From the NCBI GenBank assembly GCA_021824065.1, contig JAKALU010000003.1, forward strand, positions 5,553 to 69,552: a stretch of DNA of 64,000 nucleotides, given 5' to 3'. The DNA is from Nitrospirota bacterium (GTDB taxonomy: Bacteria > Nitrospirota > Thermodesulfovibrionia > Thermodesulfovibrionales > UBA1546). A program made the translations under genes and the position numbers. Positions 29,705 through 48,901 of the stretch are shown here, one piece after another. Numbering within the stretch: the first letter of the stretch is position 1; each line of letters starts with the position of its first letter. The notes under the pieces were generated by a model, which saw only the letters and a list, made by a program, of their open reading frames with translations, was not told the DNA's origin and did no database searches.

Positions 29705-29864
29705 AGCAAGGGTATGGTATTATATCCTCGCTCATTCTCGGGCTGAAGCCCTGCGAGGGATTTTGCCTTACAGCCCCCCATGTCCCCCTTTGCAAAGGGG
29801 GATTAAGAGGGTTGTTGAATATCGACAAAATAAAACCGCTCAGATACAATACCATACCCTGTTG
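29705..29864. repeat. MITE-like element, TIR family CAA(T)GGGYATGGYATT, copy B (carries a nested C/G hairpin at 29774-29811)
   Basis: Left CAAGGGTATGGTATT (29707-29721) matches the reverse complement of right AATACCATACCCTGTTG (29848-29864). Core CTCGCTCATTCTCGG...GAGGGATTTTGCCTT is shared with 20644-20776. Confidence 0.65.
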
Positions 29865-29882
29865 AATAGGAAAGTCTGAACA

Positions 29883-31463
29883 ATGAAAAAAAAGTTTTAT
29901 GTTACAACACCGATTTATTACGTTAATGATGTCCCGCACATAGGTCACGCATATACAACTATAGCAGCGGATATCCTTGCACGGTATAACAGGTTAATAA
30001 ATAGAGACGTTTTTTCCCTCACAGGGACTGACGAACATGGACAGAAAGTCGAAAAAGCAGCACAGGGAAAAGGCAAAACACCGAAAGAACACGCAGACCT
30101 CATGGTAAAAAATTTCAAAAACCTATGGGAAAGGCTCAGCATATCAAACGATGCATTCATAAGAACGACAGATGATGAACATAAAATGGTGGTTCAGGAA
30201 CTCCTTCAGAAACTATATGACAATGGTGAAATCTTAAAGAGGACATACTCAGGCTGGTACTGTACACCGGATGAGAGATTCTGGACAGAAAAAGAGGTTG
30301 TAGAGGGAAAATGCCCTGACTGCGGAAGGCCTGTTGAGCATATCGAAGAAGATAATTATTTTTTCCTGATGTCTAAATATCAGGAAAGGCTTATTAAATA
30401 TATAGAGGATAATCCGTCATACATACTTCCTGAAACCCGCAGGAATGAGGTGCTCGGCTTTCTGAAAAATAACACACTCGGAGACCTCTGTATATCAAGA
30501 CCCAGACACAGGCTTTCATGGGGCATTCCACTTCCGTTTGATGAAAACTTTGTAACATATGTCTGGTTCGATGCACTTGTGAATTATTTTTCAGCTACTA
30601 AATATCTTGTGCCACCCTCCCATCCCCCCCTTAGTAAGGGGGGGCAAGGGGGGGGTGATGACTGGTGGCCTGCGGATCATCATCTTATAGGAAAGGACAT
30701 CCTTACAACCCATGCTGTTTACTGGTCAACAATGCTCATGGCATTGAAATTACCTCTGCCTAAAAATATCTTTGCGCATGGTTGGTGGACGATTGAGGGC
30801 AAAAAAATGTCAAAGTCTCTCGGGAATGTGGTAGACCCTTATGAGATAGTTGATAAATATGGCGTTGATGCATTCAGATATTTTCTTTTCAGGGAAGTGC
30901 CGTTTGGTCTGGACGGAGATTTTTCTGAACAGGCACTAATAAACCGTATAAACACAGACCTTGCGAATGATTTGGGGAATCTGCTGAGCAGGTTTCTTGC
31001 GATGGCTGTAAAATATTTTGAAGGAAAAATCGAGATGTCAAAATCGCTGGAAGAATTTAAAGTTTATTGTGTCAAATCTTTAGTGGGTGCAATGGATGAG
31101 CAGAACTGGTCGCATCTCCGCTTTAATCTGATTCTCGAGAATATCTGGAACATAGTTAGTGAGACGAATAATCTTATAGCAAGAGAAGAGCCATGGAAAC
31201 TTGCAAAGGATAATCAGGCCAGACTCAAAGATGTGATGTACAGCATATGGAACTCACTCAGAATAATAGCTTTTCTTGTGTATCCTTTCATGCCTTCTAC
31301 TGCAGAGAGGATGTGGAGACAGCTCGGTTTAAAATCTTTGACAGAAGAAGTGAGAGACGGTCTGCCCGGAATCTTTTCGTGGGATTGGAAGCCTGCTTAT
31401 GAGATAAAAGTCTCAAAGGGAGAGCACCTTTTTCCGAGGATTGAGACAAAAGAGGCAAAATAA
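29883..31463 (+). CDS. metG: Methionine--tRNA ligase (short form)
   Basis: 526 aa. HIGH motif PHIGHAYT, zinc knuckle CPDCGRPV, and KMSKS. Confidence 0.95.
   Translation: MKKKFYVTTPIYYVNDVPHIGHAYTTIAADILARYNRLINRDVFSLTGTDEHGQKVEKAAQGKGKTPKEHADLMVKNFKNLWERLSISNDAFIRTTDDEHKMVVQELLQKLYDNGEILKRTYSGWYCTPDERFWTEKEVVEGKCPDCGRPVEHIEEDNYFFLMSKYQERLIKYIEDNPSYILPETRRNEVLGFLKNNTLGDLCISRPRHRLSWGIPLPFDENFVTYVWFDALVNYFSATKYLVPPSHPPLSKGGQGGGDDWWPADHHLIGKDILTTHAVYWSTMLMALKLPLPKNIFAHGWWTIEGKKMSKSLGNVVDPYEIVDKYGVDAFRYFLFREVPFGLDGDFSEQALINRINTDLANDLGNLLSRFLAMAVKYFEGKIEMSKSLEEFKVYCVKSLVGAMDEQNWSHLRFNLILENIWNIVSETNNLIAREEPWKLAKDNQARLKDVMYSIWNSLRIIAFLVYPFMPSTAERMWRQLGLKSLTEEVRDGLPGIFSWDWKPAYEIKVSKGEHLFPRIETKEAK
30615..30655. 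repeat. Nested C-run/G-run hairpin element inside metG, translated in frame as PSHPPLSKGGQGGG
   Basis: The sequence is CCCTCCCATCCCCCCCTTAGTAAGGGGGGGCAAGGGGGGGG. The central part, CCCCCCC-ttagtaa-GGGGGGG, is a perfect hairpin. Confidence 0.75.
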
Positions 31464-31543
31464 AAGATGAGGCAGGCAGACATAATATTCTCGCTCATTT
31501 TGATAAATACAACTTCTGAAACGGAATCTTGTGCCTTTTTTCT

Positions 31544-31647
31544 GTCATTCCGCACTTGATGCGGAATCCAGTATTTAGCCTTTTAAATAATAAGGTCTGG
31601 ATTCCCGCTGGAGTTTATCCCGTACGCCGATACGGGGCGAGAATGAC
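31544..31647. repeat. Hairpin-cluster element GTCATTCC...GAGAATGAC (second copy)
   Basis: Contains ATTCCGCA-cttga-TGCGGAAT, CCGTA-cgccga-TACGG, and inverted ends GTCATTC / GAATGAC. A partial MITE-core fragment, ATATTCTCGCTCATTT, lies at 31485-31500. Confidence 0.65.
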
Positions 31648-31668
31648 AAATTAGTAATAGGAGAAAAC

Positions 31669-32982
31669 TTGAAAAAGGCTGATTATATAATTCGCGGCGA
31701 TTATGTCCTCCCGATGGATGAAGGCCTTCCCGTTATTAAAGATGGCGCAGTAGCTGTTAATGGAAAGACCATCATTGATGTAGGAAGTTTTAATGACATA
31801 TCAAAAAAATACACATCAAAAAATATTATCGGCGGGAAGAACAGGGCAGTATTGCCAGGACTCATCAACACACACACCCATGCAGCAATGGTTTATTTCA
31901 GGGGGATGGCAGATGACCTTCCATTAAAGGAGTGGCTTGAGGAGCACATATGGCCTGCTGAAAATAAATGGCTAAGTCCTGAATTTGTATCTGATGCAAC
32001 AGAGCTTGCATGTCTTGAGATGCTAAAGGCAGGCATTACAACATATAATGACATGTACTTCTTCGAGGATGCTTCGGGAAAGGCTGCAAAAAAAATCGGC
32101 ATTAGGGCAGTGCTTGGCGCCGGGATTGTTGAGTTTCCAACAGTATCAGGGCAGAACGCAGTTGATTACCTAAACAAGGCAGAAAGATTTATAAAAGATT
32201 GGAAGAAAGATGAATTGATTATCCCGAGCGTTGCACCTCATTCAGTTTATACATGCCAGCCCGAAACTCTTACTATGGCAAAAAAACTTGCTGATAAATA
32301 TGATGTGCCTATTCACATACATCTTTCTGAGACAGAGTGGGAGGTTGGAGAGGTAATGGGTAGATACCATAAAAGACCTGTTGAACACCTTGAAGCCATC
32401 GGGTTTTTAGATGAAAATGTCCTGGCAGTCCATTGTATATGGGTTGAGGATAACGAGATTGAGCTGCTTGCAAAAAGGAAGGTGGGTGTCTCTCACTGCA
32501 TGGAAAGCAACCTAAAACTTGCATCAGGATTTGCGCCTGTTGTCACAATGCTTATGAGCGGGATAAAGGTGACCTTTGGGACTGATGGTGCTGCAAGTAA
32601 CAACGACCTGAACATCTTAAGTGAAATTTCTACTACAGCAAAGGTACATAAGGCACTCTCAAATAACCCCACAGTTCTTGACGCAAAAACAGCTTTACTC
32701 ATGGCAACAAGATGGGGAGCAGAGGTTCTTGGTCTCGGGGAAATTACAGGAAGCCTTGAGAAAGGAAAGGCAGCAGACATCATAATCATGAACCTCGACA
32801 AACCTCATCTTATCCCCCTCTATGACATCTACTCGCATATCGTCTATTCTGCAAGGGCATCTGATGTCGAGACAGTCTTTGTTAATGGCAAACTTGCTGT
32901 GGACAATGGAGAACTGGTTACTGCATCTGAAAAAGAGATCCTTGATAAGGCAAGAAAATGGAGAGAGAAGATCAGGGGATAA
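31669..32982 (+). CDS. mtaD: Amidohydrolase, 5-methylthioadenosine/S-adenosylhomocysteine deaminase-like
   Basis: 437 aa with a TTG start. Contains PGLINTHTHAAM, HLSET and GTDGAASNN. Confidence 0.75.
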   Translation: MKKADYIIRGDYVLPMDEGLPVIKDGAVAVNGKTIIDVGSFNDISKKYTSKNIIGGKNRAVLPGLINTHTHAAMVYFRGMADDLPLKEWLEEHIWPAENKWLSPEFVSDATELACLEMLKAGITTYNDMYFFEDASGKAAKKIGIRAVLGAGIVEFPTVSGQNAVDYLNKAERFIKDWKKDELIIPSVAPHSVYTCQPETLTMAKKLADKYDVPIHIHLSETEWEVGEVMGRYHKRPVEHLEAIGFLDENVLAVHCIWVEDNEIELLAKRKVGVSHCMESNLKLASGFAPVVTMLMSGIKVTFGTDGAASNNDLNILSEISTTAKVHKALSNNPTVLDAKTALLMATRWGAEVLGLGEITGSLEKGKAADIIIMNLDKPHLIPLYDIYSHIVYSARASDVETVFVNGKLAVDNGELVTASEKEILDKARKWREKIRG

Positions 32983-33124
32983 ATCAAGTTTAAGATTTGT
33001 TTTTGCCCTATGGGATTTTTGAAATTGAAAACCAGGTCATGCAGTCAAAGGGGAGTCTATCCGAGCTTTTTACACCATGTTTCTTGAGCGAGTCGCCAAA
33101 AGGTATCAGGCACTCAGGAAAAGA

Positions 33125-35458
33125 TTATTTCAATTTCACAATCGTAACTCCTCTTCCTCCCTCGTTTAGTTCTCCGCTCCTGAATTCTCTTACGAGGGGA
33201 TGGCCTGAAAGGTGTTCATGCACTGCCTTAAGGAGGGCGCCGGTTCCGACGCCGTGCACAATAATCACTTCACCAATGTCTGCAAGGGCAGCATCATTGA
33301 GAAAAGGCTCAAGCCTTGAAAGCGCCTCATTAACACGGAGACCTATAAGCCCGAGGCGGGATGAGGCGGTTTTTTCAGGGCGCTCTTCTCTCAAAGATTC
33401 CAAAGGTGTTATGCCCTTTTTTACTGTAGCGTCTGAAAGGGGAATCTCTATGTCCATTCCGCGCACACTGATTTTAAGGCGCATATGTTTTCTGTTTATC
33501 CCTGTGACAGGCGCATCACAGCCGATTGAACGGACAAATACCAGATCCCCTTCCTTTATCTCATCAATAGAAATGGGAGGCTCTTTTTTAAATTCTTTTA
33601 ACTTTTCTGAAACTTCGTGGTGTGCCTTTTCGGTTTTTTTGAGGGCTTCGCGTTTTTTCTTCCGCGCCTCTTCAAGAAGCACATGCATCTGTTTCTTTGT
33701 GTTTCTTATAATCGACTCTGCCTCAATGTATGCCTTTTCTTCTGCCTCCCTCCCCTTCCTTTCAATTTCATTAAGTCTTTCTTTAAGGAGTCCTTCCTTT
33801 TGTTCGAAATCTTTCTTTTTATCCTCAAGTTCCCCGAGTTTCTGCTCGTATAAGTTCCTTTTTACCTTTAGGTCTGAAATAAGGTCATAGAGTTCTATGT
33901 TCATACTGCCGAAGAGTTCCTTTGCAGAAGAAATAATGTCTTCGGAAAGCCCGTATTTCTGAGCAATCTCAAGCGCATGGGACTGTCCGGGCTCTCCTGT
34001 CCTTAGTCTGTAAAGGGGATTAAGAGTTTCAGAGTCAAAATCCATTGATGCATTCACCATTCCCTCTGCCCTGTAAACAAAGCTCACAATATCCATTAGA
34101 TGGGTGGTGGCAAATATAAGCCCTCCTTTTTCCCTCAGATGTTTCAGCACCGAACATGCAATGGCAGAGCCCTGTGACGGCTCTGTACCTGTTCCGAGCT
34201 CGTCAAGGAGCACGACTGTGTTGGCTGAGCTTGTTCTTATGATATGGGAGATTTTTGAGATGTGAGCAGAGAATGTAGAGAGATTTTCTTCTATGGACTG
34301 CTCATCGCCTATATCAACAAGAAGCCTGCTGATAAAAGGGAAGGTTGAAGATGAATCCGCAGGAACAGGGATTCCGCACAAAGCCATGGTTAGCAGCAGC
34401 CCGACCGTCTTTATTGCAATTGTCTTTCCTCCGGCATTGGGTCCTGTAATCACCATTACAGTGTTTTCGCCTCCAAGCTCAAAGTCAAGAGGGACAACCT
34501 GTTTTATAGAACCGCTTATGCGCATAAGCTCAAGAATGGGATGACGCGCCCTGATGAGTTTTATGCAGAGGGAATCGCTTAATTGCGGGATCTCCATTTT
34601 TAATAAATCCGCAAATCCTGTAATGCTGTTCAGGAGGTCAAGATAAACAACTGTTTCATACTGGACTGACAACTCCGGGAGGATGTCCCTCATCATGCCT
34701 GATATCGCCTTCAGTATCCTTATCTCCTCTGTCTTTGCATCAGCAATGAGATTTTCAAGTTCATTTGCAGGTCCTATTATCTCAAGAGGCTCTATGAACG
34801 CTGTCTCGCCTGTCCTTGATATGTCATGTACAACTCCGGGCACCAGCCCCTTGGAATCCATCCTCACGGGGATCACCCATCTTCCTGCCCTTTGGCTTAT
34901 GAAGGTATCCTGAAGAAAAGTTACGACATGCCTGTCAGACATTTTTTCTTCGAGTTTCTTTCTTATATTCCGCTCCAGAGACCTTATCTGCGCCCTCACC
35001 TGAGATAGTAAAGGAGATGCGCTGTCGAGGATTTCTCCCTCGCTGTTAATGGATTTCCCGAGCGCCGAGAGTATTCCCGGGAAACCTGTCAATGAACCTG
35101 CAAGCTCTCTCAGATATGGAAGATCAACTCTTTCTCTTATCTGCTCTGATATCTCCGAAATCATCCTGAGGACAGAGACGAATGAGTAAAGCTCAAGGGG
35201 TTCGAGGATTGCACCTTCGGGTTTAAGCTTTCCCATAAAAGGTGCCATGTCATCGAAATGAGTGAGCCCGAGTTTGTCTCCTTCCTGATTCAGCCTGCGG
35301 ATTTCCCTTATAGCTGAGAATCTTTTTTCTATGTCTCCTTTTTTGTTCAAAGGGCGGAGATTCTGGATGGACTTTCCTGTTGCTTTGCTATGTGAGAACA
35401 TGGAGATTGACTCAAGAATCCTGTCGAATTCCAGGACATGCAAGGTGTTTTCTTTCAT
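33125..35458 (-). CDS. mutS2: Endonuclease MutS2 (MutS domain + C-terminal Smr)
   Basis: 777 aa. Walker A GPNAGGKT. C-terminal Smr domain (IIVHGVGTGALLKAVHEHL). Confidence 0.92.
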   Translation of the reverse strand: MKENTLHVLEFDRILESISMFSHSKATGKSIQNLRPLNKKGDIEKRFSAIREIRRLNQEGDKLGLTHFDDMAPFMGKLKPEGAILEPLELYSFVSVLRMISEISEQIRERVDLPYLRELAGSLTGFPGILSALGKSINSEGEILDSASPLLSQVRAQIRSLERNIRKKLEEKMSDRHVVTFLQDTFISQRAGRWVIPVRMDSKGLVPGVVHDISRTGETAFIEPLEIIGPANELENLIADAKTEEIRILKAISGMMRDILPELSVQYETVVYLDLLNSITGFADLLKMEIPQLSDSLCIKLIRARHPILELMRISGSIKQVVPLDFELGGENTVMVITGPNAGGKTIAIKTVGLLLTMALCGIPVPADSSSTFPFISRLLVDIGDEQSIEENLSTFSAHISKISHIIRTSSANTVVLLDELGTGTEPSQGSAIACSVLKHLREKGGLIFATTHLMDIVSFVYRAEGMVNASMDFDSETLNPLYRLRTGEPGQSHALEIAQKYGLSEDIISSAKELFGSMNIELYDLISDLKVKRNLYEQKLGELEDKKKDFEQKEGLLKERLNEIERKGREAEEKAYIEAESIIRNTKKQMHVLLEEARKKKREALKKTEKAHHEVSEKLKEFKKEPPISIDEIKEGDLVFVRSIGCDAPVTGINRKHMRLKISVRGMDIEIPLSDATVKKGITPLESLREERPEKTASSRLGLIGLRVNEALSRLEPFLNDAALADIGEVIIVHGVGTGALLKAVHEHLSGHPLVREFRSGELNEGGRGVTIVKLK

Positions 35459-35811
35459 GCTGAGTATTTCCCCTTTGCCCTTTTTCTTCTTTTTGCCTTC
35501 TGCTTTTTTATCTTCTCACTCTCAAGCTCTCGTCTGCCCATCCCTGACAATGACTCAATCCTCTCTACGAGTTCCCTTCTTGCAAGGAATCTGTTAATGG
35601 ACTGGCTTCTGTCCTTCATGCACTTTATCTCAATGTCTGTGGGAGTATGCCTGATGTAAACGCATGTTGCTGCCTTGTTCACCTTCTGGCCTCCCTTCCC
35701 CGAAGACCTGATGAACTTCTCCTCAATATCATCTTCCCTGATATTGAGTGCCTCAAACTTCTCCTTGAGCCACTTGTTCTTCTTTTCACTTACTGCAAAG
35801 GTTGGAATCAT
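35455..35811 (-). CDS. Peptide chain release factor-like (RF-1 domain, GGQ) protein
   Basis: 118 aa. GGQ motif in SSGKGGQKVNK and a basic C-terminal tail. Overlaps the mutS2 start by 4 nt. Confidence 0.75.
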   Translation of the reverse strand: MIPTFAVSEKKNKWLKEKFEALNIREDDIEEKFIRSSGKGGQKVNKAATCVYIRHTPTDIEIKCMKDRSQSINRFLARRELVERIESLSGMGRRELESEKIKKQKAKRRKRAKGKYSA

Positions 35812-35911
35812 GCCTGATATTTTACTCTAAGCCAGTGCTTTAGCTTTACCCGCCGCATTCTTTTTTTACCGGGTTCAACGGCAGATACTCCTGTGTCACA
35901 ACAGAGGTGTG

Positions 35912-36382
35912 TTAATGGAACTCGGGCAGAAGGCTCTTCAATCTCCAATGTTTAATGCCTTTTTCGGTTACATATTCCCATTTCTGAATGTCCAGCATGG
36001 TGCTCATTTTAAATGAAGAAAGGGAATAGTAGTCGATTTCGACCGTAACTTCAGCGCTGACACTTTCTTCATCGTAGCTTGTTCCCACAATGCGGTAGTC
36101 GAACATCTTAACACTTTTTGCTGCTTTTGCTCTTGCGCTGAATTCCTTAGCAATGCCCTCTGCAGCAAAAAGGCCAGCGGCGTTTAAGCTCTGCGCAGTC
36201 AAAAGTTTATTATAATTGTTGATGGTATCATCGAATTCCTTCCGGATAGACATCTTAGTCATGCAGGCGGTAAAAGTTGCAGCAATAAATAACACCATGA
36301 GAGCAGGTAAGATTTTATCTTTCTCAGCCATTTGTTTCAATAAAAAAATGCTCATTGAAATGAGCCCATTATATTTAGGCAT
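35912..36382 (-). CDS. Hypothetical membrane-anchored protein or lipoprotein
   Basis: The N-terminal hydrophobic segment ends in ...AATFTAC, a possible lipobox. No family was recognised. Confidence 0.45.
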   Translation of the reverse strand: MPKYNGLISMSIFLLKQMAEKDKILPALMVLFIAATFTACMTKMSIRKEFDDTINNYNKLLTAQSLNAAGLFAAEGIAKEFSARAKAAKSVKMFDYRIVGTSYDEESVSAEVTVEIDYYSLSSFKMSTMLDIQKWEYVTEKGIKHWRLKSLLPEFH

Positions 36383-36845: not shown

Positions 36846-36851
36846 GATAAG

Positions 36852-37653: not shown

Positions 37654-37657
37654 TAAA

Positions 37658-38138: not shown

Positions 38139-38927
38139 ATGAGATTTAAGGTTCGAAGGTTAAGAATCAAGGTTTTTTTGTTTTTCCTGCTATTCACTGT
38201 TCACTATTCACTTTTCACTGTTTCTTATGCGGCGCACCCGCTTATAACAGATGATACTGGCACACAGGGTAAAGGGAAATTTCAACTTGAATTAAATGGA
38301 GAGTATGGACGAGAAGATGAAGATGGAGTCACAACTAATACCACAGAGGCATCAACAATATTATCTTACGGGGTAATTAACAACGTGGATATCGTATTTG
38401 GTATACCATATCAATATGTAAGGGCAAAAGATTCGGGGGCTGCATTTACAGAGGATGGTGTCTCAGATGCATCGATTGAATTGAAGTGGCGGTTTTATGA
38501 GAGGAAAGGTCTAAGTCTTGCCTTGAAACCCGGTATTACCCTTCCGACAGGAGACGAAGAAAAGGGATTGGGAGCAGGACGTTCAACATATTCCCTGTTT
38601 TTTATTACTACAAAGGAAATCGAGCCGTGGGCATTCCATCTCAATCTCGGCTATATGAGAAATGATAACAAGGCCGATGAAAGAAAAAATCTGTGGCACG
38701 CATCTCTTGCCTCTACGGTTGAAGTTGTAAAAGACCTGGAAGTAGTCGTTAATATCGGAATCGAGAAAGATACGGAAAGGAACAGCAATATTGATCCTGC
38801 CTTTATTCTGGGTGGATTAATTTATTCTGTATCAGAAAATTTTGACATTGACTTTGGCATCAAGCATGAACTAACTAAGCCCGAGACTGACTATTCAGTT
38901 CTTGCGGGAATTACATGGAGGTTTTAA
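38139..38927 (+). CDS. Outer-membrane beta-barrel transporter-like protein (MetA-pathway/phenol-degradation-type family)
   Basis: Start moved to the ATG at 38139, preceded by AAAGGAG. Has a signal peptide, alternating beta-strand pattern and a C-terminal ...GITWRF. Confidence 0.6.
   Translation: MRFKVRRLRIKVFLFFLLFTVHYSLFTVSYAAHPLITDDTGTQGKGKFQLELNGEYGREDEDGVTTNTTEASTILSYGVINNVDIVFGIPYQYVRAKDSGAAFTEDGVSDASIELKWRFYERKGLSLALKPGITLPTGDEEKGLGAGRSTYSLFFITTKEIEPWAFHLNLGYMRNDNKADERKNLWHASLASTVEVVKDLEVVVNIGIEKDTERNSNIDPAFILGGLIYSVSENFDIDFGIKHELTKPETDYSVLAGITWRF
38193..38220. repeat. 4x7-nt word array TTCACTG TTCACTA TTCACTT TTCACTG
   Basis: Read directly. Encodes part of the OMP signal peptide (FTVHYSLFTVS). 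Confidence 0.85.
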
Positions 38928-39599: not shown

Positions 39600-39601
39600 T
39601 T

Positions 39602-39943: not shown

Positions 39944-40859
39944 TTGGCTTAAGAGACAGTCGTCAATTGTCAGTCGTCAGTTGTCAGCAAAGAAAACAAA
40001 GGAGAGGTTTCTTGACAAGACGTTGGGGCATATTGTCTCTTTTACTGAAGACACGATGTTCAATGAGGTTACTTCTTCAAAAAATGGTTTTTTACAGGCC
40101 ATTGAACCGAGGCTGAAGGTGTTGACCATCATTTTTTTCATAATTTCATTAAGCCTTCAAAAAAGTTTGTATACTGTATCAGCGTTCTCTCTCATTTCAT
40201 TGGCACTGGCTTTGATATCAAGGATCCCCCTTCACCTTTTTATACAAAGAATTCTGCCTGCTTTTCTAATCACGCTTTTGATTGCAGCCCCTGCCACTTT
40301 GAACTTTATTGTAAAAGGTGAGCCGCTAATAAGGCTTTATACTTTTGAGAATTCATGGAGCATCGGCAGATTAATTATTCCGCAGGAAATCTCTATTACG
40401 AAACAGGGACTGTCAAGTGCAGCGACACTTCTTTTAAGGGTAACAGCGTCTGTCTCTCTGGTTTTTCTGATCACACTGACGACTTCACCGAACAGATTTA
40501 TCAAGGCAATCTCGTCTTTTATGCCTGGTGCATTTAAATCCATAATATCCATGAGCTACAGATACATATTTTTCCTGATAAAGAAGGTTGAGCAGTTTAT
40601 AATGGGCTTTACAGCAAGGAATATATCGTCAATGTCTCGCGGGGTTACAGGCCGCAGGTGGGTTGCATCAAGAATGGGTCTTTTGTTTTCAATCAGCCTT
40701 AAATTGAGCACCGAGCTTGAGCAGGCCATGGAATCCAGAGGATATAAAGAAGAGTTCAGAGTTGAGAGTTCAGAGTTGAGAGTTTCAAGGACTGATATTT
40801 TATGGGTGATCCTTAGCATAATGTTTATGGGGGTAATGCTTTGGAAGTCTTTAACGTAG
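39918..40859 (+). CDS. cbiQ: ECF transporter transmembrane (T) component CbiQ, with an N-terminal extension of about 60 aa
   Basis: 313 aa. AIEPRLKVL.. matches the CbiQ entry motif, and the protein is multi-TM. The start could be the ATG at 39930. Confidence 0.8.
   Translation: MRGKMAIPDWLKRQSSIVSRQLSAKKTKERFLDKTLGHIVSFTEDTMFNEVTSSKNGFLQAIEPRLKVLTIIFFIISLSLQKSLYTVSAFSLISLALALISRIPLHLFIQRILPAFLITLLIAAPATLNFIVKGEPLIRLYTFENSWSIGRLIIPQEISITKQGLSSAATLLLRVTASVSLVFLITLTTSPNRFIKAISSFMPGAFKSIISMSYRYIFFLIKKVEQFIMGFTARNISSMSRGVTGRRWVASRMGLLFSISLKLSTELEQAMESRGYKEEFRVESSELRVSRTDILWVILSIMFMGVMLWKSLT
39957..39991. repeat. 5x7-nt word array CAGTCGT CAATTGT CAGTCGT CAGTTGT CAGCAAA
   Basis: Read directly. 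Lies in the 5' extension of cbiQ. Confidence 0.85.
40752..40786. repeat. 5x7-nt word array GAGTTCA GAGTTGA GAGTTCA GAGTTGA GAGTTTC
   Basis: Read directly. Lies at the 3' end of cbiQ and encodes EFRVESSELRVS. Confidence 0.85.
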
Positions 40860-41923
40860 AAAAAATATCGTATACATATAAAAATGGCAAGACGGCTGTT
40901 GATGGGGTCTCATTCAGTGTTGCTAACGGCGAAAGCCTGACAATAATAGGCACTAACGGCTCTGGTAAATCAACGCTCCTTTATCTCCTTGATGGTCTTC
41001 TGATCCCGGAGTCTGGAAGCATGAGAATATTCGGTAAAGATGCAAGTAATGGATTTCTATCCGATTTCAGGCAGAGGATATCGCTCCTGTTCCAGAACCC
41101 GCATGCCCAGCTTTTTTTATTGAGTGTCTGGGATGAATTATGCTTCGGGCCGTCACAGCTTGAACTTGATAAAGCTGAAATACAGAAAAGAGCAGAGGAT
41201 ATACTTGGATTGTTCGGCATAGAACATCTGAGGGACAGGGGGCCATGGGATTTGAGTGGAGGAGAAATGAAGAAGGTTGCTCTTGGAACATGCCTCAGCA
41301 TCAACCCTGATGTACTTTTGCTTGATGAACCAACAACCGGACTTGACCCGAGAAGTCAGGTCGAAATTGTAGATTTAATAAATGAACTCAGGAAAGCAGG
41401 CAAGACGATAATTACTGCAACCCACGATCTTGGTATAATTGAAGATATCTCTGACAGGACAATTGTTCTTGGTGAAGACCACAGGATTTTGCTTCAAGGT
41501 AAGCCGTGGGTTGTAATGGCCGATACAGAAACTCTTCTTCAAGCCAATCTTATTCACAGGCATGTGCACAGGCACTGCTGGTATGTTCATGAGCACAGCC
41601 ATTCTGGAAGACATGAACATGAGCATATGGTTTTACATGATGTATTAACAAGTCCCCCCTCACCACCATCTACTGAAGGGAGGCATGGGGGGGTTAATGA
41701 GGAGGGTGTTTTAAAGATGACAGATTTAGAAAAACTCAAAAAGCTGCTGGAGCACTGGGCAGAGCATAATGAAGAGCATGTGAGCACATATCTTGAATGG
41801 GCAGAAAAGGCAGATGCATCAGGAGAAAAAGAATTGTATAAAATACTAAGAGAAATAGCTGAAAATACAAAGAAGATGGATGGGTTGTTTGAAAAGGCAA
41901 AGAAGATAATTGAAAGTAAATAA
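40841..41923 (+). CDS. cbiO: ECF transporter ATPase CbiO/NikO with a His-rich tail and a fused helical module of about 69 aa
   Basis: Walker A GTNGSGKST, signature LSGGEMKK, Walker B LLLDEP. Followed by HRHVHRHCWYVHEHSHSGRHEHEH, a C/G hairpin element, and MTDLEKLKKLLEHWAEHNEEH... Confidence 0.85.
   Translation: MEVFNVEKISYTYKNGKTAVDGVSFSVANGESLTIIGTNGSGKSTLLYLLDGLLIPESGSMRIFGKDASNGFLSDFRQRISLLFQNPHAQLFLLSVWDELCFGPSQLELDKAEIQKRAEDILGLFGIEHLRDRGPWDLSGGEMKKVALGTCLSINPDVLLLDEPTTGLDPRSQVEIVDLINELRKAGKTIITATHDLGIIEDISDRTIVLGEDHRILLQGKPWVVMADTETLLQANLIHRHVHRHCWYVHEHSHSGRHEHEHMVLHDVLTSPPSPPSTEGRHGGVNEEGVLKMTDLEKLKKLLEHWAEHNEEHVSTYLEWAEKADASGEKELYKILREIAENTKKMDGLFEKAKKIIESK
41654..41693. repeat. Nested C-run/G-run element inside the cbiO tail, translated as SPPSPPSTEGRHGG
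   Basis: The sequence is CCCCCCTCACCACCATCTACTGAAGGGAGGCATGGGGGGG. Confidence 0.65.
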
Positions 41924-41924
41924 G

Positions 41925-41983
41925 TGTCAGAGGGTCAAAGTGTCAAAGTCTCTGATACTCTGACGCTCTGATACTTTGATACT
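41925..41983. repeat. Inverted pair of 8-nt word arrays (TGTCAGAG GGTCAAAG TGTCAAAG | TCTCTGAT ACTCTGAC GCTCTGAT ACTTTGAT)
   Basis: Read directly. Starts 2 nt after the cbiO stop. The arms are imperfect reverse complements. Confidence 0.8.
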
Positions 41984-42551
41984 TGGGAGATTAATGGAAT
42001 ATAAACTGCCAGAGGGATTTGATAACAGGGAAGAGGCAATCGAATCAATCATAAAGAAAGAGATTGAGGCAGGCGAGTCTGAACTTGAAATCATCAAAAA
42101 GGGGATTGCGGAATTCCTTCTCAATAATAAAGGATATTCTAAAGAAGAGATTGAGAGAGATGTTGAATTTGATGTTGTTGTGGGGAACGAGAGAGCTAAA
42201 TCAAGGGCTGATTTTATCGTAAGAATCAGCGGTAAAAGGTTAATGATTGTGAAATGCTCTGTTGGCGCTCTTGTTTCAAGGGAAAGGCAGGCAATAGCAT
42301 GCGCGCGTGTAATGGATTCTTATCAGATTCCCTTTGCCATTGTGACAGACGGCAATCACGCAACAGTGCTCAACACGCTTACAGGTGAGGTAATTAGCGA
42401 GGGGCTTGAAAAGATTCCTTCAAAGGATGAGCTTAAGAAGATGATGGAGCAGATTGAATTCAAGGAGCTTCCTTCAAACAGGGCAGAAAAGGAAAAGCGA
42501 ATCCTCCTCGCATTTGATGCGATAAAGTGCTCGATAAATTATGGAGAGTGA
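41976..42551 (+). CDS. Type I restriction enzyme HsdR N-terminal-domain-like (PD-(D/E)xK-type) protein
   Basis: 191 aa. RADFIVRISGKRLMIVKC...PFAIVTDGNHATVLN resembles the HSDR_N_2 family. The likely start is the ATG at 41994. Confidence 0.6.
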   Translation: MILGRLMEYKLPEGFDNREEAIESIIKKEIEAGESELEIIKKGIAEFLLNNKGYSKEEIERDVEFDVVVGNERAKSRADFIVRISGKRLMIVKCSVGALVSRERQAIACARVMDSYQIPFAIVTDGNHATVLNTLTGEVISEGLEKIPSKDELKKMMEQIEFKELPSNRAEKEKRILLAFDAIKCSINYGE

Positions 42552-42558
42552 TTTGTTT

Positions 42559-42580
42559 ATATCCGAACAAGTTCGGATAT
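42559..42580. terminator. Perfect 10-bp inverted repeat ATATCCGAAC-aa-GTTCGGATAT between convergent genes
   Basis: Read directly. There is no clear T-run on either side, so terminator function is uncertain. Confidence 0.35.
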
Positions 42581-42600
42581 GCTCTCGGGATGAGATGTAA

Positions 42601-42966
42601 TCAGTTATGAGAATGTGTTTTGCGCAACTTGTTCCCGCAATTGAAACAGAAGTTCCCTCTTAGCCTGTGGATATTAGAAGTCTTGGGGTCAAAAATCTCT
42701 ATGAATTCTATCAACGATGTAAACTTGCAGCAGCAATCTTTATAATTGATTTGAGACTCGGAATCATGCTCCAGAGGCTTTCCACAATGCATGCAGAAAT
42801 TAACCTTCAGGGGCATCAAACCTGAACCAAATAATTCATACAGTTTGTTTTGTGCTTCTTCTTCGAAAGTTCCTCTTTTTATGACCTTACAACACCATGA
42901 ATCAGCGAACCCTTCAAGGTTTTCTAATTCATACCATAAAGCCCAGCTTTCTTTGTCTAACAACAT
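42601..42966 (-). CDS. Hypothetical protein with two CxxCG zinc-ribbon knuckles
   Basis: 121 aa containing CMHCGKPL and CFNCGNKL. A TTGACA-N17-TAATTA promoter-like sequence lies just upstream. Confidence 0.45.
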   Translation of the reverse strand: MLLDKESWALWYELENLEGFADSWCCKVIKRGTFEEEAQNKLYELFGSGLMPLKVNFCMHCGKPLEHDSESQINYKDCCCKFTSLIEFIEIFDPKTSNIHRLRGNFCFNCGNKLRKTHSHN

Positions 42967-43179
42967 ATGCTTTTTCTTTTATAATTACAGGAAATCATTT
43001 TGCTTGTCAATTATGTAACTATAAATAGCAAATAACCTAATCTTACTTTTATTAAACTTAGATTGACAAAAAGGATAGCTTAAAAGCATACAAGAAGCCT
43101 TTTTTTGCATCTTGACAGTGATTATATGATAATACTTCGTTCTTAGATTAGAAGAAGAGAAATTGATACATTGAAATTT

Positions 43180-44088
43180 TTACGGTGTTTCTGAGGCGAA
43201 AAGCCCTGTGCTCAGGTAGCGTTCTCCCCTGTCAGGTAAAATAACGACAACCTTCTTCCCTCTGCCGAGTTTTTTAGCGACTCTTAATGCTGCCCACATT
43301 GCTGCACCTGAGGATATGCCGCACAGAAGCCCTTCTTTCAAGGACAATTGTCTTGCTGTCTCTCCCGCATCAGAATCAGTAACCTGAGTTACTTCGTTGT
43401 AGATTTTTGTGTTCAAAACACCTGGATAAAAACCTGCTCCAATTCCTGCAATCTTATGAGGTCCTGGATTCCCGCCTGAAAGCACCGGGGATGCTGCCGG
43501 CTCTACTGCAACTATCCATACACCAGGGTTTTTACTCTTTAAAACCTCGCCAACGCCTGTTATTGTCCCTCCTGTCCCGACACCTGCTACAAAACCATCA
43601 GGAACAGAGCCGAGGTCTTCTATAACTTCTACTGCTGTTGTCTTTCTGTGTACCTCAGGGTTTGCTGGGTTTTCAAACTGTTGAGGCATGAAGTAATCAG
43701 GGTTCATCTTATATATCTCTTCTGCCTTTTCAACAGCTCCCATCATGCCTTTTTTGCCTTCTGTCAAAACAAGTTCCGCTCCATAGGCCTGAAGGAGTTG
43801 TCTCCTTTCCATTGACATGGTCTCTGACATGGTAAGAATCAATCTATACCCTTTTACCGCTGCGACCAGTGCAAGCCCTATCCCGGTATTCCCGCTTGTG
43901 GGCTCTATTATTATTCCGCCAGGCTTCAGCCTCCCGTCTTTCTCTGCTGTCTCTATCATCGAAAGGGCAATCCTGTCTTTTACAGAGCCTCCTATGTTAT
44001 AGCCCTCGAGTTTTGCCCAGACCTCTGCATCATTTATTGAGCAGAGACGATTGATCTTTACTAAAGGTGTGTTGCCAATCAGTGTCAA
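43180..44088 (-). CDS. cysK: Cysteine synthase A (O-acetylserine sulfhydrylase)
   Basis: 302 aa. Contains IGNTPLV, the PLP lysine region GGSVKDR, and [10 protein letters not shown]. Confidence 0.9.
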
Positions 44089-44095
44089 TATGTTT

Positions 44096-44995
44096 TTATT
44101 CAGTTTCAGGTTTGCCTCCCTTTATTATCAAATCAAAAAGGGTGTCTGCCATTTTAGTATTCATATCTTTTAATATCATGTATTCTTTTGTTGCAAGCTT
44201 TATTTCTCCAATATTTACATATGACGTCCCAATGCCGTAATGGGCATCTGCATGTTTAGGGTTTATTCGAATAGCCTCCTTAAATGAAATGATTGCTTCA
44301 TCAAAGCTGCCTGTTGCAAGCATAGCATATCCGAGACCATTATGGAAATCTGCACTGTCAGGCTCTATAGCTATTGCCTTCTTGAATTCTATAGCAGCCT
44401 CACGGGCATTGCCCATCTCCATCATTGCAATCCCCATCCACCCATGAAGTTCGGCATTGCCCATATCTTTTTTAAGGGCATCCCGGAGGATTTCTACAGC
44501 CTTATCATAATCGTGAGCCTTAATATACCCTCTCACCGTAGAAATTTTATCTTCAAAAAATTTTACCTGACTATCACCTTTTGGTGACTTTACATCAAGG
44601 GCAGGCAGATTAAGATTCTTCATAAAATCGAGTATCACCTTAACAGGCATTGCCTCAAACAAATCTCCTGCTGTTGATTGCCTGTAAACCATTCCAACAA
44701 CTTTGTTGTCAAAAAATACCGGGGTGCCTGGTAGGGGTTTCTCTTCAAACTCGACAAGCATATATACCGTATTATCACGGTTTTTTTTAATGCCGCTGAC
44801 TACACCCTGTATCTTTTTGATCGTCGTGCCTTCTGTTTTGAGTGTATAGATCTTATCGGCGATTGATGCTACATAGTCAGTGTTAAATTCAGGCGATTTT
44901 GTGTTTATGACATCCTGCGGGTAAGAATCCTTAAACCATGCCACCTGGGACAGAAAGAACATAAAGCAGATAATCGCAAACTTTCCGGTCTTCAT
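44096..44995 (-). CDS. Secreted TPR-repeat protein
   Basis: 299 aa with a signal peptide. The C-terminal half carries about four TPR units ([20 protein letters not shown]...). Confidence 0.65.
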
Positions 44996-45011
44996 AGCCG
45001 TCCTGCCGACT

Positions 45012-46868
45012 TCAGTCCGTAACCTCTAAAAGCTCTCTGCCTTCCCTTATCTGTTCGAAGGTAGTAATATCAATGCCTTTATCTTCGAAATATTCTTTTT
45101 CTACGATCTCGATGTAAAACCTATCAAGTCCGCTATTCTTAAGAAAGTCCTCTCTTAAATTTATATCTTTTTTCTCTACGATTATCGGCAGAAGATGATT
45201 GAGATAGAACGATTCTTTCCTGAGGTCTAAGAGCGCCTTCTCAAATAGCTTTTGAGGCACTTTCCTCGCAAAGCCCTCTTCAGCAAGTTCTCTCCCTATG
45301 TCCTCTCTTATCTCATCCCTCCCCTCTTTAGTATTAAGCCGGGGATAGAAACTGCGCATCCTTTCCTTGAGCGCACCATGCACATGATGATAGAGCCTTT
45401 CTTCATCTCTGATCATTTTCAGTTCAGCAACCACATCCCTCAGGGATGCATCTCCTGCAGAGACTTTTGTAATCCCTTTTGATATAGTATTAATCTTTTT
45501 CCTGCCATAGGCTGTTATATATTTGTTGCGAAGGAGCTCTTTTACAGCTATCTCATCAAAAAGTCCTCTGTCGAGTTTATCAAACTCCTTTTTATTGCCT
45601 ATAAGGCTCCTGAGAGAATCCTCTGTGAAATCCACATTCTCCATAAAAGCTATCTGACTCAGTAATGCCTGGACGTTATCGTACCTGTCAAAGTATGTGA
45701 CTATAGAGCTGAACTCTTCAAAGATACTGAAATCATTTGTTTCACGTGCAATCTCATCACATGCCTTGCCTGTATCGAGGAGTACCTGTTCAAAGCCCAT
45801 ATCACTATGAGAATGTGCCCTGTGTTTTGCCTTTACCAGCCTCACTATATCTTCATTTATTATGTGTTTCTTCAGAGACGGGTCTTTAAAAAAGAGGTTT
45901 TCGAGTATTGATCTGGCCTCCTTGAGATATTCAGGCTCTTTTATCTCCTGTAACTTTTTGCCTCTGAGCAGAAGTTCATCAAGCGTATCGAAAAGGACAA
46001 TCGGGATATTGTTCCTGATGCTCAGGGTTCTCAATCTCCTCAATCTCGCAACCTCTGAAAGTTCGAGGCTGTCTTTAGAGATACTGTTGAGAAGGATATC
46101 CCTGTATTCATCAACCACACGCCTGTTCTCAGGGTGTTTGTACATTATGTCAATCTTCATCCTCTCCTGCTGATAGTTGTCTATTTTATATCTTGCCACT
46201 ATGTCTTCAAGATAAAGTTCTTCCTGCGGTGTCAGCGCCCTTTCATTAGAATAAAATTTTTCAAATGCTCTGTAGAATTCTCCATTTTCCTTGTGGATTA
46301 TCTCAAATATGAATACCGTTGATTTTTGCTCATTCAATTCGCTTATAAAATCGTTCATCAGTTCTGTATCTTTACCTTCCCCAATAAATTCTGTCCTTTT
46401 CAGAAACTTCCCAACAGACCTTAATATCTGTTTCTGCCGTTTTTTGTATTCGCCCCTGAAATCTGAGGACACAAAGAAATAATAGTTCTTTACTGCATTG
46501 CCCTGGAGGAAAAGCCTGTAGAATAATTCGCTGCCTTCGGTATCGTTTGTAAATACAATACTCTCCTCCTCGTCGAGAAACGCACCAAACATGATCAGCC
46601 TGTTGGAAACCTCTCCTTTTATCATGTCCTTCAGCGGTTTTTCTACACCAAACATATATTCGCAGAAACTTCCGCCTGTGCCTTTATAATGGATGCCCTC
46701 TTTAGAGATGGTGAATTCATTCCCCTTTGAGAAAAATCTTATATGGAAAGCTGTTTCTTCATAGAAATATGTACTCTCAACACTGGCTCCACCTACAAGT
46801 GCAAAGAACTCAACTGGTCCGAGATTCCCATGAAGCCTGAGGTCCTTAATCATATAAAAATATAACAC
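45012..46868 (-). CDS. Large conserved hypothetical cytoplasmic protein
   Basis: 618-aa uninterrupted ORF with no motif I can name. The likely start is MIKDLRL at 46853. Confidence 0.55.
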   Translation of the reverse strand: MLYFYMIKDLRLHGNLGPVEFFALVGGASVESTYFYEETAFHIRFFSKGNEFTISKEGIHYKGTGGSFCEYMFGVEKPLKDMIKGEVSNRLIMFGAFLDEEESIVFTNDTEGSELFYRLFLQGNAVKNYYFFVSSDFRGEYKKRQKQILRSVGKFLKRTEFIGEGKDTELMNDFISELNEQKSTVFIFEIIHKENGEFYRAFEKFYSNERALTPQEELYLEDIVARYKIDNYQQERMKIDIMYKHPENRRVVDEYRDILLNSISKDSLELSEVARLRRLRTLSIRNNIPIVLFDTLDELLLRGKKLQEIKEPEYLKEARSILENLFFKDPSLKKHIINEDIVRLVKAKHRAHSHSDMGFEQVLLDTGKACDEIARETNDFSIFEEFSSIVTYFDRYDNVQALLSQIAFMENVDFTEDSLRSLIGNKKEFDKLDRGLFDEIAVKELLRNKYITAYGRKKINTISKGITKVSAGDASLRDVVAELKMIRDEERLYHHVHGALKERMRSFYPRLNTKEGRDEIREDIGRELAEEGFARKVPQKLFEKALLDLRKESFYLNHLLPIIVEKKDINLREDFLKNSGLDRFYIEIVEKEYFEDKGIDITTFEQIREGRELLEVTD

Positions 46869-46933
46869 ATGCCCGTTAAAATATTCTATTGCCCTTTATT
46901 GCCGAAAAGGGCCGTATTTGGTTATCATATCTT

Positions 46934-48901
46934 ATGAAGAAGAAATTTTTGCCCTCTCCCCTCGAAGGGGAGGGATGGGTGGGAGGGGCTATTTCCTGTG
47001 TTCTGCTTATAGCAGTGTCTTTTACCTTTTTAAGCATTGCAGCAGCACAGGGGACAGATGGGAAAGCCCTTCTTATTAAGGGTAAAAATGAGATGGATGA
47101 CGGCAGATATGCCGAGGCAATTGAGAGCCTCTCTGCAGCGTATGAGAAACTGCCGGTTATCAGAGATTATATACTTTTCTGGCTATCAAAGGCCTATCAA
47201 GAGTCGGGCAATATCACTGAATCAAATTCCAAGATAAAAGAACTGCTCAAAGGCTATCCTGACTCGCCCTTAAGGAAAAAGGCACGGGCAATGGAGATTA
47301 AAAACATTGTTGCCTCAAAGGACATGCCGCATGATTTAAAGACCTTTGAATCTTATATCAAAGACTATCCGGAAGACTACGAAATAAAGTTTTTATTTGC
47401 ACAGCTCCTCAAAAAGAAAGGAGAGGCAGAAAAGGCAAAAACAATATTTAAGGACATATACGTCAACAGCGCAGGGACACTTTCAAAAATAGCATATAAT
47501 GAATTGACACCCTCTGATATCGCCCTGCACGACCTTATTGAAAAGGCATCAAATCTCATAAATGTTATGGAATTTACAATGTCTGAATCTATACTCAGAG
47601 AGGCCCTGCTGAGAGATGACGGACAGCGCAAACTTGAGATTCTTAAGAAATTAGGGCATTCAATCTTCAAACAAAAAAGATATAAGGAATCAGCAGAGAC
47701 ATATGAAAAGGCGGGTGATTATTATTCGAGGGCAAAGGCACTTTATATGGCAGGAGAAAAGACTGCGTTTGGCACCGCCTTAAAAAAACTGGCTTTGATG
47801 GGAGACAGGAGGACAGGCTCGCTTTTGATTCTGGCTGCATCTGCCAAGCGGAGGAATGGCGAGATTGATGAGGCACTGAGTATTTATAGAAATATAAAGG
47901 CAAATTATCCCGCAGAGGCGGAGAATTCTTTATGGGGCATTGGCTGGACTTATTATCGCAGCGGTGACTATCAGAAAGCCCTTGACGTCTTTACAGACCT
48001 TTGCAGTGTTTACAACAGCTCAAAATATCTCTACTGGAAGGCGCAGTCATTGGAAGCGTTGGGCAAAGACTCAGACCATATTTACAGACAGCTTGCAGAG
48101 AGAGAGCAGGATTTTTACAGTGTACTTGCACAGATAAGAAAGGGGTCAAGGGGTCAAGGGGTCAAGAGTTCGGGGGTTGGGTTCTCAATTAATTCAGACT
48201 CAAAACTCAAGCCCTTTCAGTCCGAGAGAATTGACATCCTGATGGAACTCGGCATGAAAAAAGAGGCAGTTACAGAACTATCTGCCGTGGCCAGAAAGGC
48301 AACCAGCCCTGATGAGCTTGCTTCTGTTTCTCTGAAACTGCAGGAGGCCGGGGGATATACATTGGCAATAGCCCTATCATCAAAGCTGCCTTATAGAGAT
48401 GTGACGCACAGCATTTTATATCCGCTTGCCCATTGGCCCGTTGTCAAGGAAGTATCTGCCAGATATGAAGTTGACCCTTTTGTTGTTCTTTCTGTCATGA
48501 GAGAGGAAAGCCGCTTCGATCCCGGGGCTCGCTCCCATGCAGGGGCACTTGGGCTTATGCAGCTAATGCCACAGACAGCCTATTTAATAAACAGAAAGAT
48601 TAATCTGAATATAACTTCTCGGGAACAGATTCATGATATAAAGATAAATATAACCCTCGGCTCATATTACATAAACTCGCTGATAAAAGAGTTCGGCTCA
48701 TTACCAGCAGCAGTAGCAGCTTATAATGCAGGAGAAGACATTGTAAGGAAATGGCAGAAGGCAGGTAATTATAAGTCATTGGATGAATTCGTTGAGGATA
48801 TCCCTTATGACGAAACAAGAAATTTTGCCAAGCGTGTTATCACTACTTACTTTGAGTATCTCAAGTCTGCGGGTGGAAAAGAGATACCGCAAATCTTATA
48901 A
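46934..48901 (+). CDS. slt: Soluble lytic murein transglycosylase (Slt70-like)
   Basis: Start moved to the ATG at 46934 (MKKKF...). Superhelical TPR-like N-domain. C-terminal SLT catalytic motif ESRFDP...GLMQLMP...AYNAG. Confidence 0.85.
   Translation: MKKKFLPSPLEGEGWVGGAISCVLLIAVSFTFLSIAAAQGTDGKALLIKGKNEMDDGRYAEAIESLSAAYEKLPVIRDYILFWLSKAYQESGNITESNSKIKELLKGYPDSPLRKKARAMEIKNIVASKDMPHDLKTFESYIKDYPEDYEIKFLFAQLLKKKGEAEKAKTIFKDIYVNSAGTLSKIAYNELTPSDIALHDLIEKASNLINVMEFTMSESILREALLRDDGQRKLEILKKLGHSIFKQKRYKESAETYEKAGDYYSRAKALYMAGEKTAFGTALKKLALMGDRRTGSLLILAASAKRRNGEIDEALSIYRNIKANYPAEAENSLWGIGWTYYRSGDYQKALDVFTDLCSVYNSSKYLYWKAQSLEALGKDSDHIYRQLAEREQDFYSVLAQIRKGSRGQGVKSSGVGFSINSDSKLKPFQSERIDILMELGMKKEAVTELSAVARKATSPDELASVSLKLQEAGGYTLAIALSSKLPYRDVTHSILYPLAHWPVVKEVSARYEVDPFVVLSVMREESRFDPGARSHAGALGLMQLMPQTAYLINRKINLNITSREQIHDIKINITLGSYYINSLIKEFGSLPAAVAAYNAGEDIVRKWQKAGNYKSLDEFVEDIPYDETRNFAKRVITTYFEYLKSAGGKEIPQIL
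46952..46988. repeat. Nested C-run/G-run element in the slt 5' end, translated as PSPLEGEGWVGG
   Basis: The sequence is CCCTCTCCCCTCGAAGGGGAGGGATGGGTGGGAGGGG, with inner stem CTCCCCT-cga-AGGGGAG. Confidence 0.7.
48142..48181. repeat. 8-nt word array GGGGTCAA x3, then GAGTTCGG GGGTTGGG, inside slt
   Basis: Read directly. Translated as GSRGQGVKSSGVG. Confidence 0.85.

Follow-up and report, generated by a model that had tools for sequence, protein, structure and literature searches.

C/G-block repeats of the BoxC kind within and between genes of a Thermodesulfovibrionia bacterium

Introduction

How do short repeats built of C-runs and G-runs come to lie inside protein-coding genes with the reading frame still open? 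We addressed this question in a 64,000-nucleotide stretch of DNA from an uncultured Nitrospirota bacterium of the Thermodesulfovibrionales type (contig JAKALU010000003.1, positions 5,553 to 69,552), hereafter called the window, whose GC content is 39-46%. The window carries four such elements: one in the intergenic spacer upstream of metG, and one each in metG, which encodes methionyl-tRNA synthetase (MetRS), in a cbiO-like gene and in slt. An earlier sequence-only reading had described them as a mobile hairpin family with one nested layout, comparable to the Rickettsia palindromic elements (RPE) and tolerated in surface loops or termini. Our analysis indicates that they are probably (at about 0.7) dispersed C/G-block repeats of the kind known from Escherichia coli as BoxC, which have been copied into these sites secondarily, are read through when genic, recur at the same sites, are constrained in sequence, and spread without a transposase of their own.

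Results

The four elements of the window

The repeats are about 36-46 bp long, and their C-rich and G-rich blocks are arranged as C-C-G-G or C-G-G. For their detection, we used two models. Model R3 was built from 20 copies of relatives, with the window sequence excluded, and model R2 from 19 environmental class-B copies, with neither window nor E. coli sequence included. Upon re-reading the sequence, all four elements described earlier were present at their positions, and they were also the top four R3 matches in the 64 kb, with 52.9 bits for the metG copy (E-value 1.6e-15), 42.1 bits for the intergenic copy (8e-12), 16.4 bits for the cbiO copy (0.004), and 11.5 bits for the slt copy (0.2). 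The R2 model assigned 35.1 bits to the slt copy (E-value 1.4e-6) and 23.8 bits to the metG copy (6e-4).

The copies belong to two classes. Class A comprises the metG, the intergenic and the decayed cbiO copies and reads C6-7, short spacer, C7, TTNNNAA, G7, short spacer, G6-7. The slt copy belongs to class B, a sister subfamily with the blocks CCCCCACCCT, CCCTCCCCC, TCGA, GGGGGAGGG, AGGGTGGGGG, of which often only three of the four are found. The nested C/C/G/G layout previously ascribed to all four elements is shared by three of them, whereas the slt copy is a three-block C-G-G element without the left outer C-run. All three genic copies are stop-free in the host frame, as had been noticed before; in the metG copy, two of the three frames on each strand are free of stops, and in the slt copy, all six. 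The intergenic and metG copies were identical in independent assemblies of five samples of the same strain (at least 99.95% identity), drawn from two sources, ENA and Logan. Additionally, the slt copy was identical in two further records, and same-strain sequence is also found in the NCBI assembly GCA_027346725.1.

Filled and empty sites

The metG gene (29883-31463, plus strand) encodes a MetRS of 526 aa without the C-terminal tRNA-binding domain, which is missing throughout the window's clade. Its class-A nested element (30612-30657, unstranded; recognized by R3, R2, and fold) has the sequence CCACCCTCCC-AT-C7-TTAGTAA-G7-CAA-G8 and folds as a nested hairpin of -37.1 kcal/mol (z -2.7). It is read as PPSHPPLSKGGQGGG in the loop preceding WWPADHH, which agrees with the location before the conserved WPADHH reported at the outset. 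We delimited this loop by VWFDALVNYFSATxYL and WWPADHH and compared the 120 closest MetRS clusters. Of these, 51 clusters had the standard loop of 12 residues (type VPGAEDARLGDF), 22 had C/G-block peptides, 38 had other repeat-derived or long segments, and 8 had shorter loops. The other or long segments are mostly tandem heptamers such as GTTCACG, AATCTCA, CAGTCAG/AACTCTC, and TAATGGG/CTCATCA. The closest MetRS in the genome collection shares 81% identity with that of the window. The standard loop is kept by most of the nearest relatives (77-84% identity); within the window's own MetRS clade, about half of the members retain it, the two closest included, and the metG element was therefore acquired later.

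The metG insert aligns to a gap in the Aquifex MetRS (2CSX), and neither the Aquifex nor the Thermus enzyme has the segment, which speaks against an ancestral peptide. The AlphaFold model assigns low confidence to residues 240-263, which is weak evidence because the whole MetRS model is poor (mean pLDDT 66.5), and the 2CSX alignment was used instead. One MetRS subclade presents a graded series, with no element in L073, C5..G5 in L080, C5-C5-G4 in L071, and the full form in L042 (L and P numbers designate the sequences compared). Ala-Pro (gcCCC) and Gly-Asp (GGtga) codon pairs frequently mark the loop junctions. We also considered a conserved mRNA hairpin in the standard MetRS loop and rejected it, as 34 such loops fold like their shuffles (z about 0) and R2 has no match there.

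The intergenic class-A element (29774-29815, unstranded; recognized by sequence, fold, and R3) consists of an outer C6, a spacer, the perfect 20-bp palindrome TCCCCCTTTGCAAAGGGGGA, already noted in the first reading, a second spacer, and a weak outer G block. It also folds as a nested hairpin (-26.2 kcal/mol, z -3.7). The element is flanked by a terminator-like hairpin after the PSP1 gene (29726-29760) and a promoter-like site before metG (TCGACA-17-TACAAT, 29822-29850), both conserved with the related locus L001. Both flanks align with L001, and only the stretch between hairpin and promoter-like site differs, the 48-bp element being replaced there by 26 unrelated AT-rich bases.

The synteny of the metG loci fell short of cbiO and slt, and the protein database was used for both genes. 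The cbiO-like gene (40841-41923, plus strand) encodes an ECF/ABC ATPase fused to a His-rich segment and DUF8180. Its decayed class-A element (41653-41693, unstranded; R3 16.4 bits) had been placed in the tail of the protein, which is incorrect: it lies in the interdomain linker, between the ABC ATPase/His-rich segment and the conserved C-terminal DUF8180. The copy translates as SPPSPPSTEGRHGG. Mutations have altered its inner arms but not the outer C6 and G7, and its fold is no stronger than that of shuffles (z -0.2). Intact copies occupy this junction in some orthologs; P0224, P0308, and P0223 have orthologous copies that share both junctions and spacers (aca aat CCCCCC tta CCCCCC ttt gct aaa GGGGGG cat GGGGGG att), so that there was one old insertion, which has since decayed in the window. 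The element is missing in P0227, P0255, and the P0229-P0249 group.

The slt gene (46934-48901, plus strand) encodes a lytic transglycosylase with TPR and SLT domains and harbors a class-B, BoxC-like three-block element (46952-46989, plus strand; detected by R2). The copy has the sequence CCCTCTCCCC-TCGA-AGGGGAGGG-AT-GGGTGGGAGGGG, with the left outer block missing, and folds no better than shuffled sequence (z -0.4). When translated from the ATG at 46934, it adds PSPLEGEGWVGG to the Slt signal peptide, after the MKKKF n-region and ahead of the hydrophobic core. The frame is open from this ATG, and the orthologs start with MKKKF, in agreement with it. However, gene callers and databases start slt at the GTG at 46979, which would leave the element in the 5' leader, and its translation is uncertain for this reason. 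The earlier placement at codons 7-19 refers to the open frame from 46934, and the element may instead precede the true start. In the orthologs, MKKKF is followed directly by the LLIAL... hydrophobic core, with no insert. One closer relative, P0122, has the insert in common with the window, in a four-block form with an extra nested hairpin.

Ortholog alignment thus gave filled and empty sites for all four copies, in line with the insertion proposed earlier. Since each copy is missing in close orthologs or in the equivalent spacer, the sequence comparisons show that all four were secondarily acquired.

Relation to BoxC and other known repeats

To our knowledge, the BoxC/PIT/TM repeats have been on record in E. 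coli since the 1990s without an assigned role. The R2 model, built from environmental copies only, also found the E. coli K-12 BoxC/TM_ECO copies 1 and 2 at their published coordinates, with 43.7 and 33.7 bits. The repeat class is therefore already known, and the window elements are, as judged from this match, members of the same class as E. coli BoxC/PIT/TM. In E. coli, BoxC, PIT, and TM_ECO denote the same intrastrand triplex repeats, with the pattern CCCTCNCCC N3-6 GGGNGAGGG N3 GGGNGAGGG (Holder et al. 2015, PMC4666352, where the earlier work of Bergler and of Hoyne/Maher is cited). They are always intergenic and unlinked to mobile elements; as single strands they form triplexes in vitro, they stall polymerases in vitro, and they mark hypervariable regions, whereas PIT elements had no promoter, terminator, or other activity (PMC4666352).

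The triplex definition (ITxF) comprises three consecutive blocks (C-rich, G-rich, and G-rich) of 6-15 nt each, with loops of 1-6 nt. In the slt copy, the blocks are CCCTCTCCCC / AGGGGAGGG / GGGTGGGAGGGG, with loops of 4 and 2 nt. The metG copy has C7/G7/G8 on both strands, with a first loop of 7 nt, or 3 nt if TT and AA pair. The intergenic copy has C5/G5/G6 on the minus strand, and the cbiO copy is decayed. The likeness to BoxC extends to short, dispersed, G/C-rich repeats with a C block, two G blocks, and short loops, at sites that are hypervariable between relatives, and without a link to transposons or phages. Unlike BoxC, most copies in related and metagenome sequence lie in frame inside genes, and class-A copies have homopolymer blocks in a symmetric four-block, nested-hairpin form. 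In addition, the recurrent use of the same protein loops and the synonymous-site conservation described below are unreported for BoxC.

The comparison with RPE stands for the behavior of the elements but not for their kinship, as they are unrelated to RPE and of the BoxC/PIT/TM kind. Both are palindromic repeats found in frame in unrelated genes, housekeeping genes included, at fold-compatible sites (PMC10969869). However, RPE are about 100-150 bp long, found in Rickettsia, located in open reading frames (ORFs) in about half of the cases, and encode a conserved peptide per family, whereas the elements described here are about 40 bp long, with a range of 38-46 bp, occur in several phyla, and can be read in different internal phases in orthologous copies. 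The REP/BIME and REPIN-RAYT repeats are similar as highly repeated, imperfect palindromes of 20-40 bp at gene ends, and the intergenic copy is REP-like in position, between a terminator and the next promoter. Unlike REP, the elements are not extragenic and have no GTAG/CGTC tag; neither a GTAG nor a CGTC head was found in the window copies or the aligned seed sequences, and no RAYT (Y1 transposase) gene was found among the called genes at 24.5-59 kb of the window. An Rfam scan of the window at the gathering threshold returned one tRNA only and no family match to the elements.

Cyanobacterial small dispersed repeats (SDR/STRR) embedded in tandem heptamers were reportedly described by Elhai and colleagues in 2008. 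They are very small hairpin repeats accompanied by tandem heptamers, as here, but the phylum and the sequences differ. In Geobacter metallireducens, four tandem heptanucleotide repeats occur between and within genes (PMC2700814) and resemble the heptamer companions described below, not the C/G hairpin.

Distribution in relatives and metagenomes

The family is large and extends beyond the window: relatives carry it in frame in many other genes, and at least 120 contigs from metagenomes contain it. Approximately 36 copies were found in 1.3 Mb of related loci. Of these, 12 lie in the metG loop and six lie in frame in the linker before the MetRS C-terminal tRNA-binding domain, whereas further in-frame copies occur in the GT9, GT4, HolB, FGAR-AT, and BPL_N genes. 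The linker from the MetRS core to this domain is a third recurrent site of in-frame C/G-block elements in relatives (L058:10563-10675, L013:11305, L011:3445, L066:11577, and L055:11618). The strict nested pattern was found in at least 120 metagenome contigs with a GC content of 38-69%. The hosts include alpha-2-macroglobulin (A2M), a Planctomycete-type PSCyt1/PSCyt2/PSD1 protein, AcrB, GlnD, a sigma-54 activator, and GH116, and about 6 of 10 Pfam-mapped copies lie between domains.

In metagenome contigs below 50% GC, intact copies were located in long ORFs in 53 of 54 cases, compared with 74% of random windows from the same contigs (P 1.3e-6). The reading phase (34/14/7 versus an expected 24.5/23/7.5) and the orientation (22:8) are modestly biased. 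Genic copies are read through, as Pro/Gly-rich peptides, since stops are missing from most frames and copies survive only if in frame. Unrelated loci, on contigs of 38-69% GC, have in common TTNNNAA loops and asymmetric spacers, with AT on one side and CNNA on the other, and the loops of the copies are often TTAC/GTAA. This mostly intragenic, in-frame, hot-spot, and conserved behavior in Nitrospirota and other phyla appears to be new.

Two further observations concern the reading of the copies. In L098:5291 and L125:6906, the same site is occupied by copies with the inner part in different phases (PPLDKGG and PPLLRGG, respectively) and the outer frame kept, a pattern suggestive of single-base slips in the C and G runs that compensated each other. 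Copies also occur in apparent prepilin leader peptides (L105:2173 and 2899, L126:5052, and L159:865), in the context ...LFTVHCS-PPHPPLTKGGRRGG-KDGFSLIEIV, directly before the G|F(T/S)LIE cleavage motif. The leader peptide is removed after cleavage.

Hot spots and heptamer arrays

The density of model hits in the metG loop is about 180 times that in the rest of the loci. A second hot spot is located in holB (DNA polymerase III delta', 27619-28710), in the zinc-module loop between NC and CxxCxxC. C/G repeats or heptamer arrays of about four units occupy the MetRS and HolB loops in roughly half of the relatives or more. Inserts of 15-50 residues occupy the HolB loop in about 40 of 51 relatives, the window included (holB genes L001-L078). 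These inserts consist of inverted heptamer arrays, in some cases centered on a C/G hairpin; in the window, the loop carries a CCCTAAC heptamer array and the array peptide PQPLTPNS. C/G hairpins flanked by heptamer arrays were also found at L029:19548, L011:123, and L016:8231 and in the metG loops of L020 and P0118. Nested inserts are present in L017, P0122, and P0231, and a number of loops fall short of the ancestral length.

The window also has many tandem arrays of heptamers or octamers, with about four units each, within genes or at gene ends, in frame when genic (16499-16524, 16580-16606, 27871-27890, 28256-28290, 28684-28711, 38190-38222, 39957-39987, 40751-40784, 41922-41983, and 48140-48166). 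Their peptides include LFTVHYSLFTV in a signal-peptide-like N-terminus and KGSRGQGVKS in Slt.

Nucleotide-level conservation

We compared third codon positions between orthologous copies with shared junctions and their host genes. The identity was 85-100% in the elements and 42-63% in the host genes. Between L005 and L011, 15 of 15 element third positions were identical (host gene 0.47); between L033 and P0023, 14 of 15 (host gene 0.47); and between P0224 and P0308, 12 of 13 (host gene 0.63). The codons CCC and GGG are not preferred in the window genes, where they make up 21-22% of the Pro and Gly codons. The earlier suggestion that the insertions are tolerated in loops or termini is retained insofar as they occupy permissive gene stretches; the conservation, judged from sequence identity, suggests that resident copies are more than tolerated junk.

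Other repeats of the window

A MITE-like unit (miniature inverted-repeat transposable element) of about 115 bp lies directly upstream of holB (27526-27641), with the terminal inverted hairpins GTCATTCCTGCGGAAGCAGGAATC ... GATTCCCGTTTTAACGGGAATGAC and two smaller hairpins inside. An isolated hairpin at 54400-54450 (GGGGGGATGTCA...TGACATCCCCC; -29.4 kcal/mol, z -4.4) falls outside the family according to models R1, R2, and R3. Finally, there is a perfect 28-bp tandem duplication of CAGGAGATAGAAACAGGCATCCTTATTT at 23834-23889.

Discussion

Copies of a BoxC-kind repeat entered an intergenic spacer and permissive gene stretches secondarily in this Thermodesulfovibrionia lineage, and we propose that they spread without a transposase of their own, likely by replication- or repair-linked template switching. 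Alternatively, a trans-acting factor might act on the hairpin- or triplex-prone DNA. Mobility is inferred from presence and absence between relatives and from multi-locus copies, such as those of one subfamily in L016, where a stretch of 21 kb holds three loci whose copies agree in both their spacers (cag/attaca) and their flanks. The structure of a resident copy would then destabilize its site, leading to deletions, to nested insertions at hairpin tips, and to replacement by other repeats, and this instability would produce hot spots and shortened loops. Such behavior would agree with the reports of unstable TM sites in E. coli. The nucleotide-level constraint implies that the folded nucleic acid would matter, either for the host or for how the element persists. 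Two additional candidates were rejected: microhomology targeting of Pro/Gly codons agrees with the metG loop and disagrees with the unoccupied sites of slt and cbiO, and concerted evolution within one genome is at odds with spacers that all differ among the L009 copies and among the L011 copies.

Several results weigh against this proposal. The filled-versus-empty comparisons at the intergenic site (against L001) and the metG loop (against relatives) revealed no terminal inverted repeats and no target-site duplications, for which the sequence-only reading had suggested looking; the resident sequence was replaced instead. No transposase was found in the annotated 24.5-59 kb of the window, the pattern occurred in 1 of 2.9 million contigs of the viral collection, which is the same contig as one of the metagenome matches, and the mechanism of movement was not observed. 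When read by eye, no window copy has the exact TM_ECO pattern: the slt copy has GGGGAGGG where GGGNGAGGG is needed, one base short, with GGGTGGGAGGGG as its third block, and class-A copies deviate by their homopolymer blocks. The intrastrand triplex of E. coli is known from in vitro work only, and BoxC is always intergenic there, whereas three of the four window copies lie in ORFs. The spacers between blocks do not covary (35% complementary versus 39% in shuffles), and a specific fold is therefore unsupported beyond the C/G blocks. Furthermore, the synonymous-site conservation speaks against neutral junk, and passive tolerance predicts mostly intergenic copies, whereas 53 of 54 were observed in ORFs.

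These last two points lead to a serious rival, which we regard as possible but rather less than likely, namely that the copies are selectively maintained cis-signals and not passengers. They may act as a ribosome-slowing mRNA hairpin with PP/GG codons at loops and domain boundaries, or as a DNA structural site, as REP/BIME or HIP1 are thought to act, which would be intragenic because intergenic space is scarce. The third-position identity in elements compared with hosts, without a preference for CCC or GGG, the ORF enrichment, the position of about 6 of 10 Pfam-mapped copies between domains, and the phase and orientation biases are all in favor of such signals. However, the corresponding site has no element in close relatives, unrelated heptamer arrays can take it, and some copies decay, such as those of the window cbiO and L021; moreover, the standard MetRS loop forms no hairpin, the spacers do not covary, and PIT elements in E. 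coli are inactive in the assays reported (PMC4666352).

It is unlikely that the repeats are non-autonomous transposable elements of the MITE or REP/REPIN type, served by a transposase encoded elsewhere, for example a hairpin-recognizing Y1 enzyme of the RAYT or IS200/IS605 type. The dispersed hairpins, their presence or absence between relatives, the bursts of one subfamily within one genome, and the frequent TTAC/GTAA loops would fit, but the intergenic and metG sites have neither target-site duplications nor terminal inverted repeats, the GTAG/CGTC head is missing, the annotated neighborhood holds no transposase, E. coli BoxC is unlinked to mobile elements, and the resident sequence was replaced, which is not a simple insertion. 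Quite unlikely, too, is an origin in place, by growth of C/G-runs from Pro/Gly codons through slippage and quasi-palindrome correction, with convergent copies. The graded series of L073, L080, L071, and L042, the junctions at Ala-Pro and Gly-Asp pairs, and the different internal phases of L098 and L125, expected from compensating one-base slips, point in that direction; it is contradicted by the spacers and TTNNNAA loops common to unrelated loci, the significant model scores, the identical composite copies at three L016 loci, and the empty orthologous sites of slt and cbiO, which contain no Pro or Gly codons. Ancestral Pro/Gly-rich linkers under protein-level selection are highly improbable, even though the peptides are flexible, linker-like, and recurrent at the same sites in some relatives: one copy is intergenic, the palindromy resides in the DNA and the conservation in third codon positions, the nearest orthologs as well as Aquifex and Thermus are without the segment, loop residues vary with the reading phase between orthologs, and the filled and empty sites contradict such linkers. 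Errors are common in homopolymer runs, and the genome was assembled from a metagenome, so that assembly or sequencing artefacts come to mind; with identical sequence in independent assemblies of five samples from two sources, every copy in frame, and decayed orthologous copies in genomes of other studies, their probability is negligible.

With a repeat class that is here mostly translated, located in essential genes, and conserved at synonymous sites, a function or a strong mechanism of persistence can be put to the test. By adding Pro/Gly-rich segments to proteins and marking loops that have been rebuilt repeatedly in related species, the elements constitute a tangible source of indels as proteins evolve. 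For metagenome-assembled genomes, they pose a practical risk to alignment, annotation, and the calling of start codons. It is a more doubtful thought that BoxC-class repeats in these phyla are a maintained, preferentially intragenic signal at protein loops and domain boundaries, serving as a translational pause, folding punctuation, or a chromosomal structural site, and remodel enzyme loops as they come and go. If true, this would be the first function for a repeat class that has lacked one for decades, and the gain, loss, and replacement of elements would drive the rapid remodeling of the same surface loops in essential enzymes.

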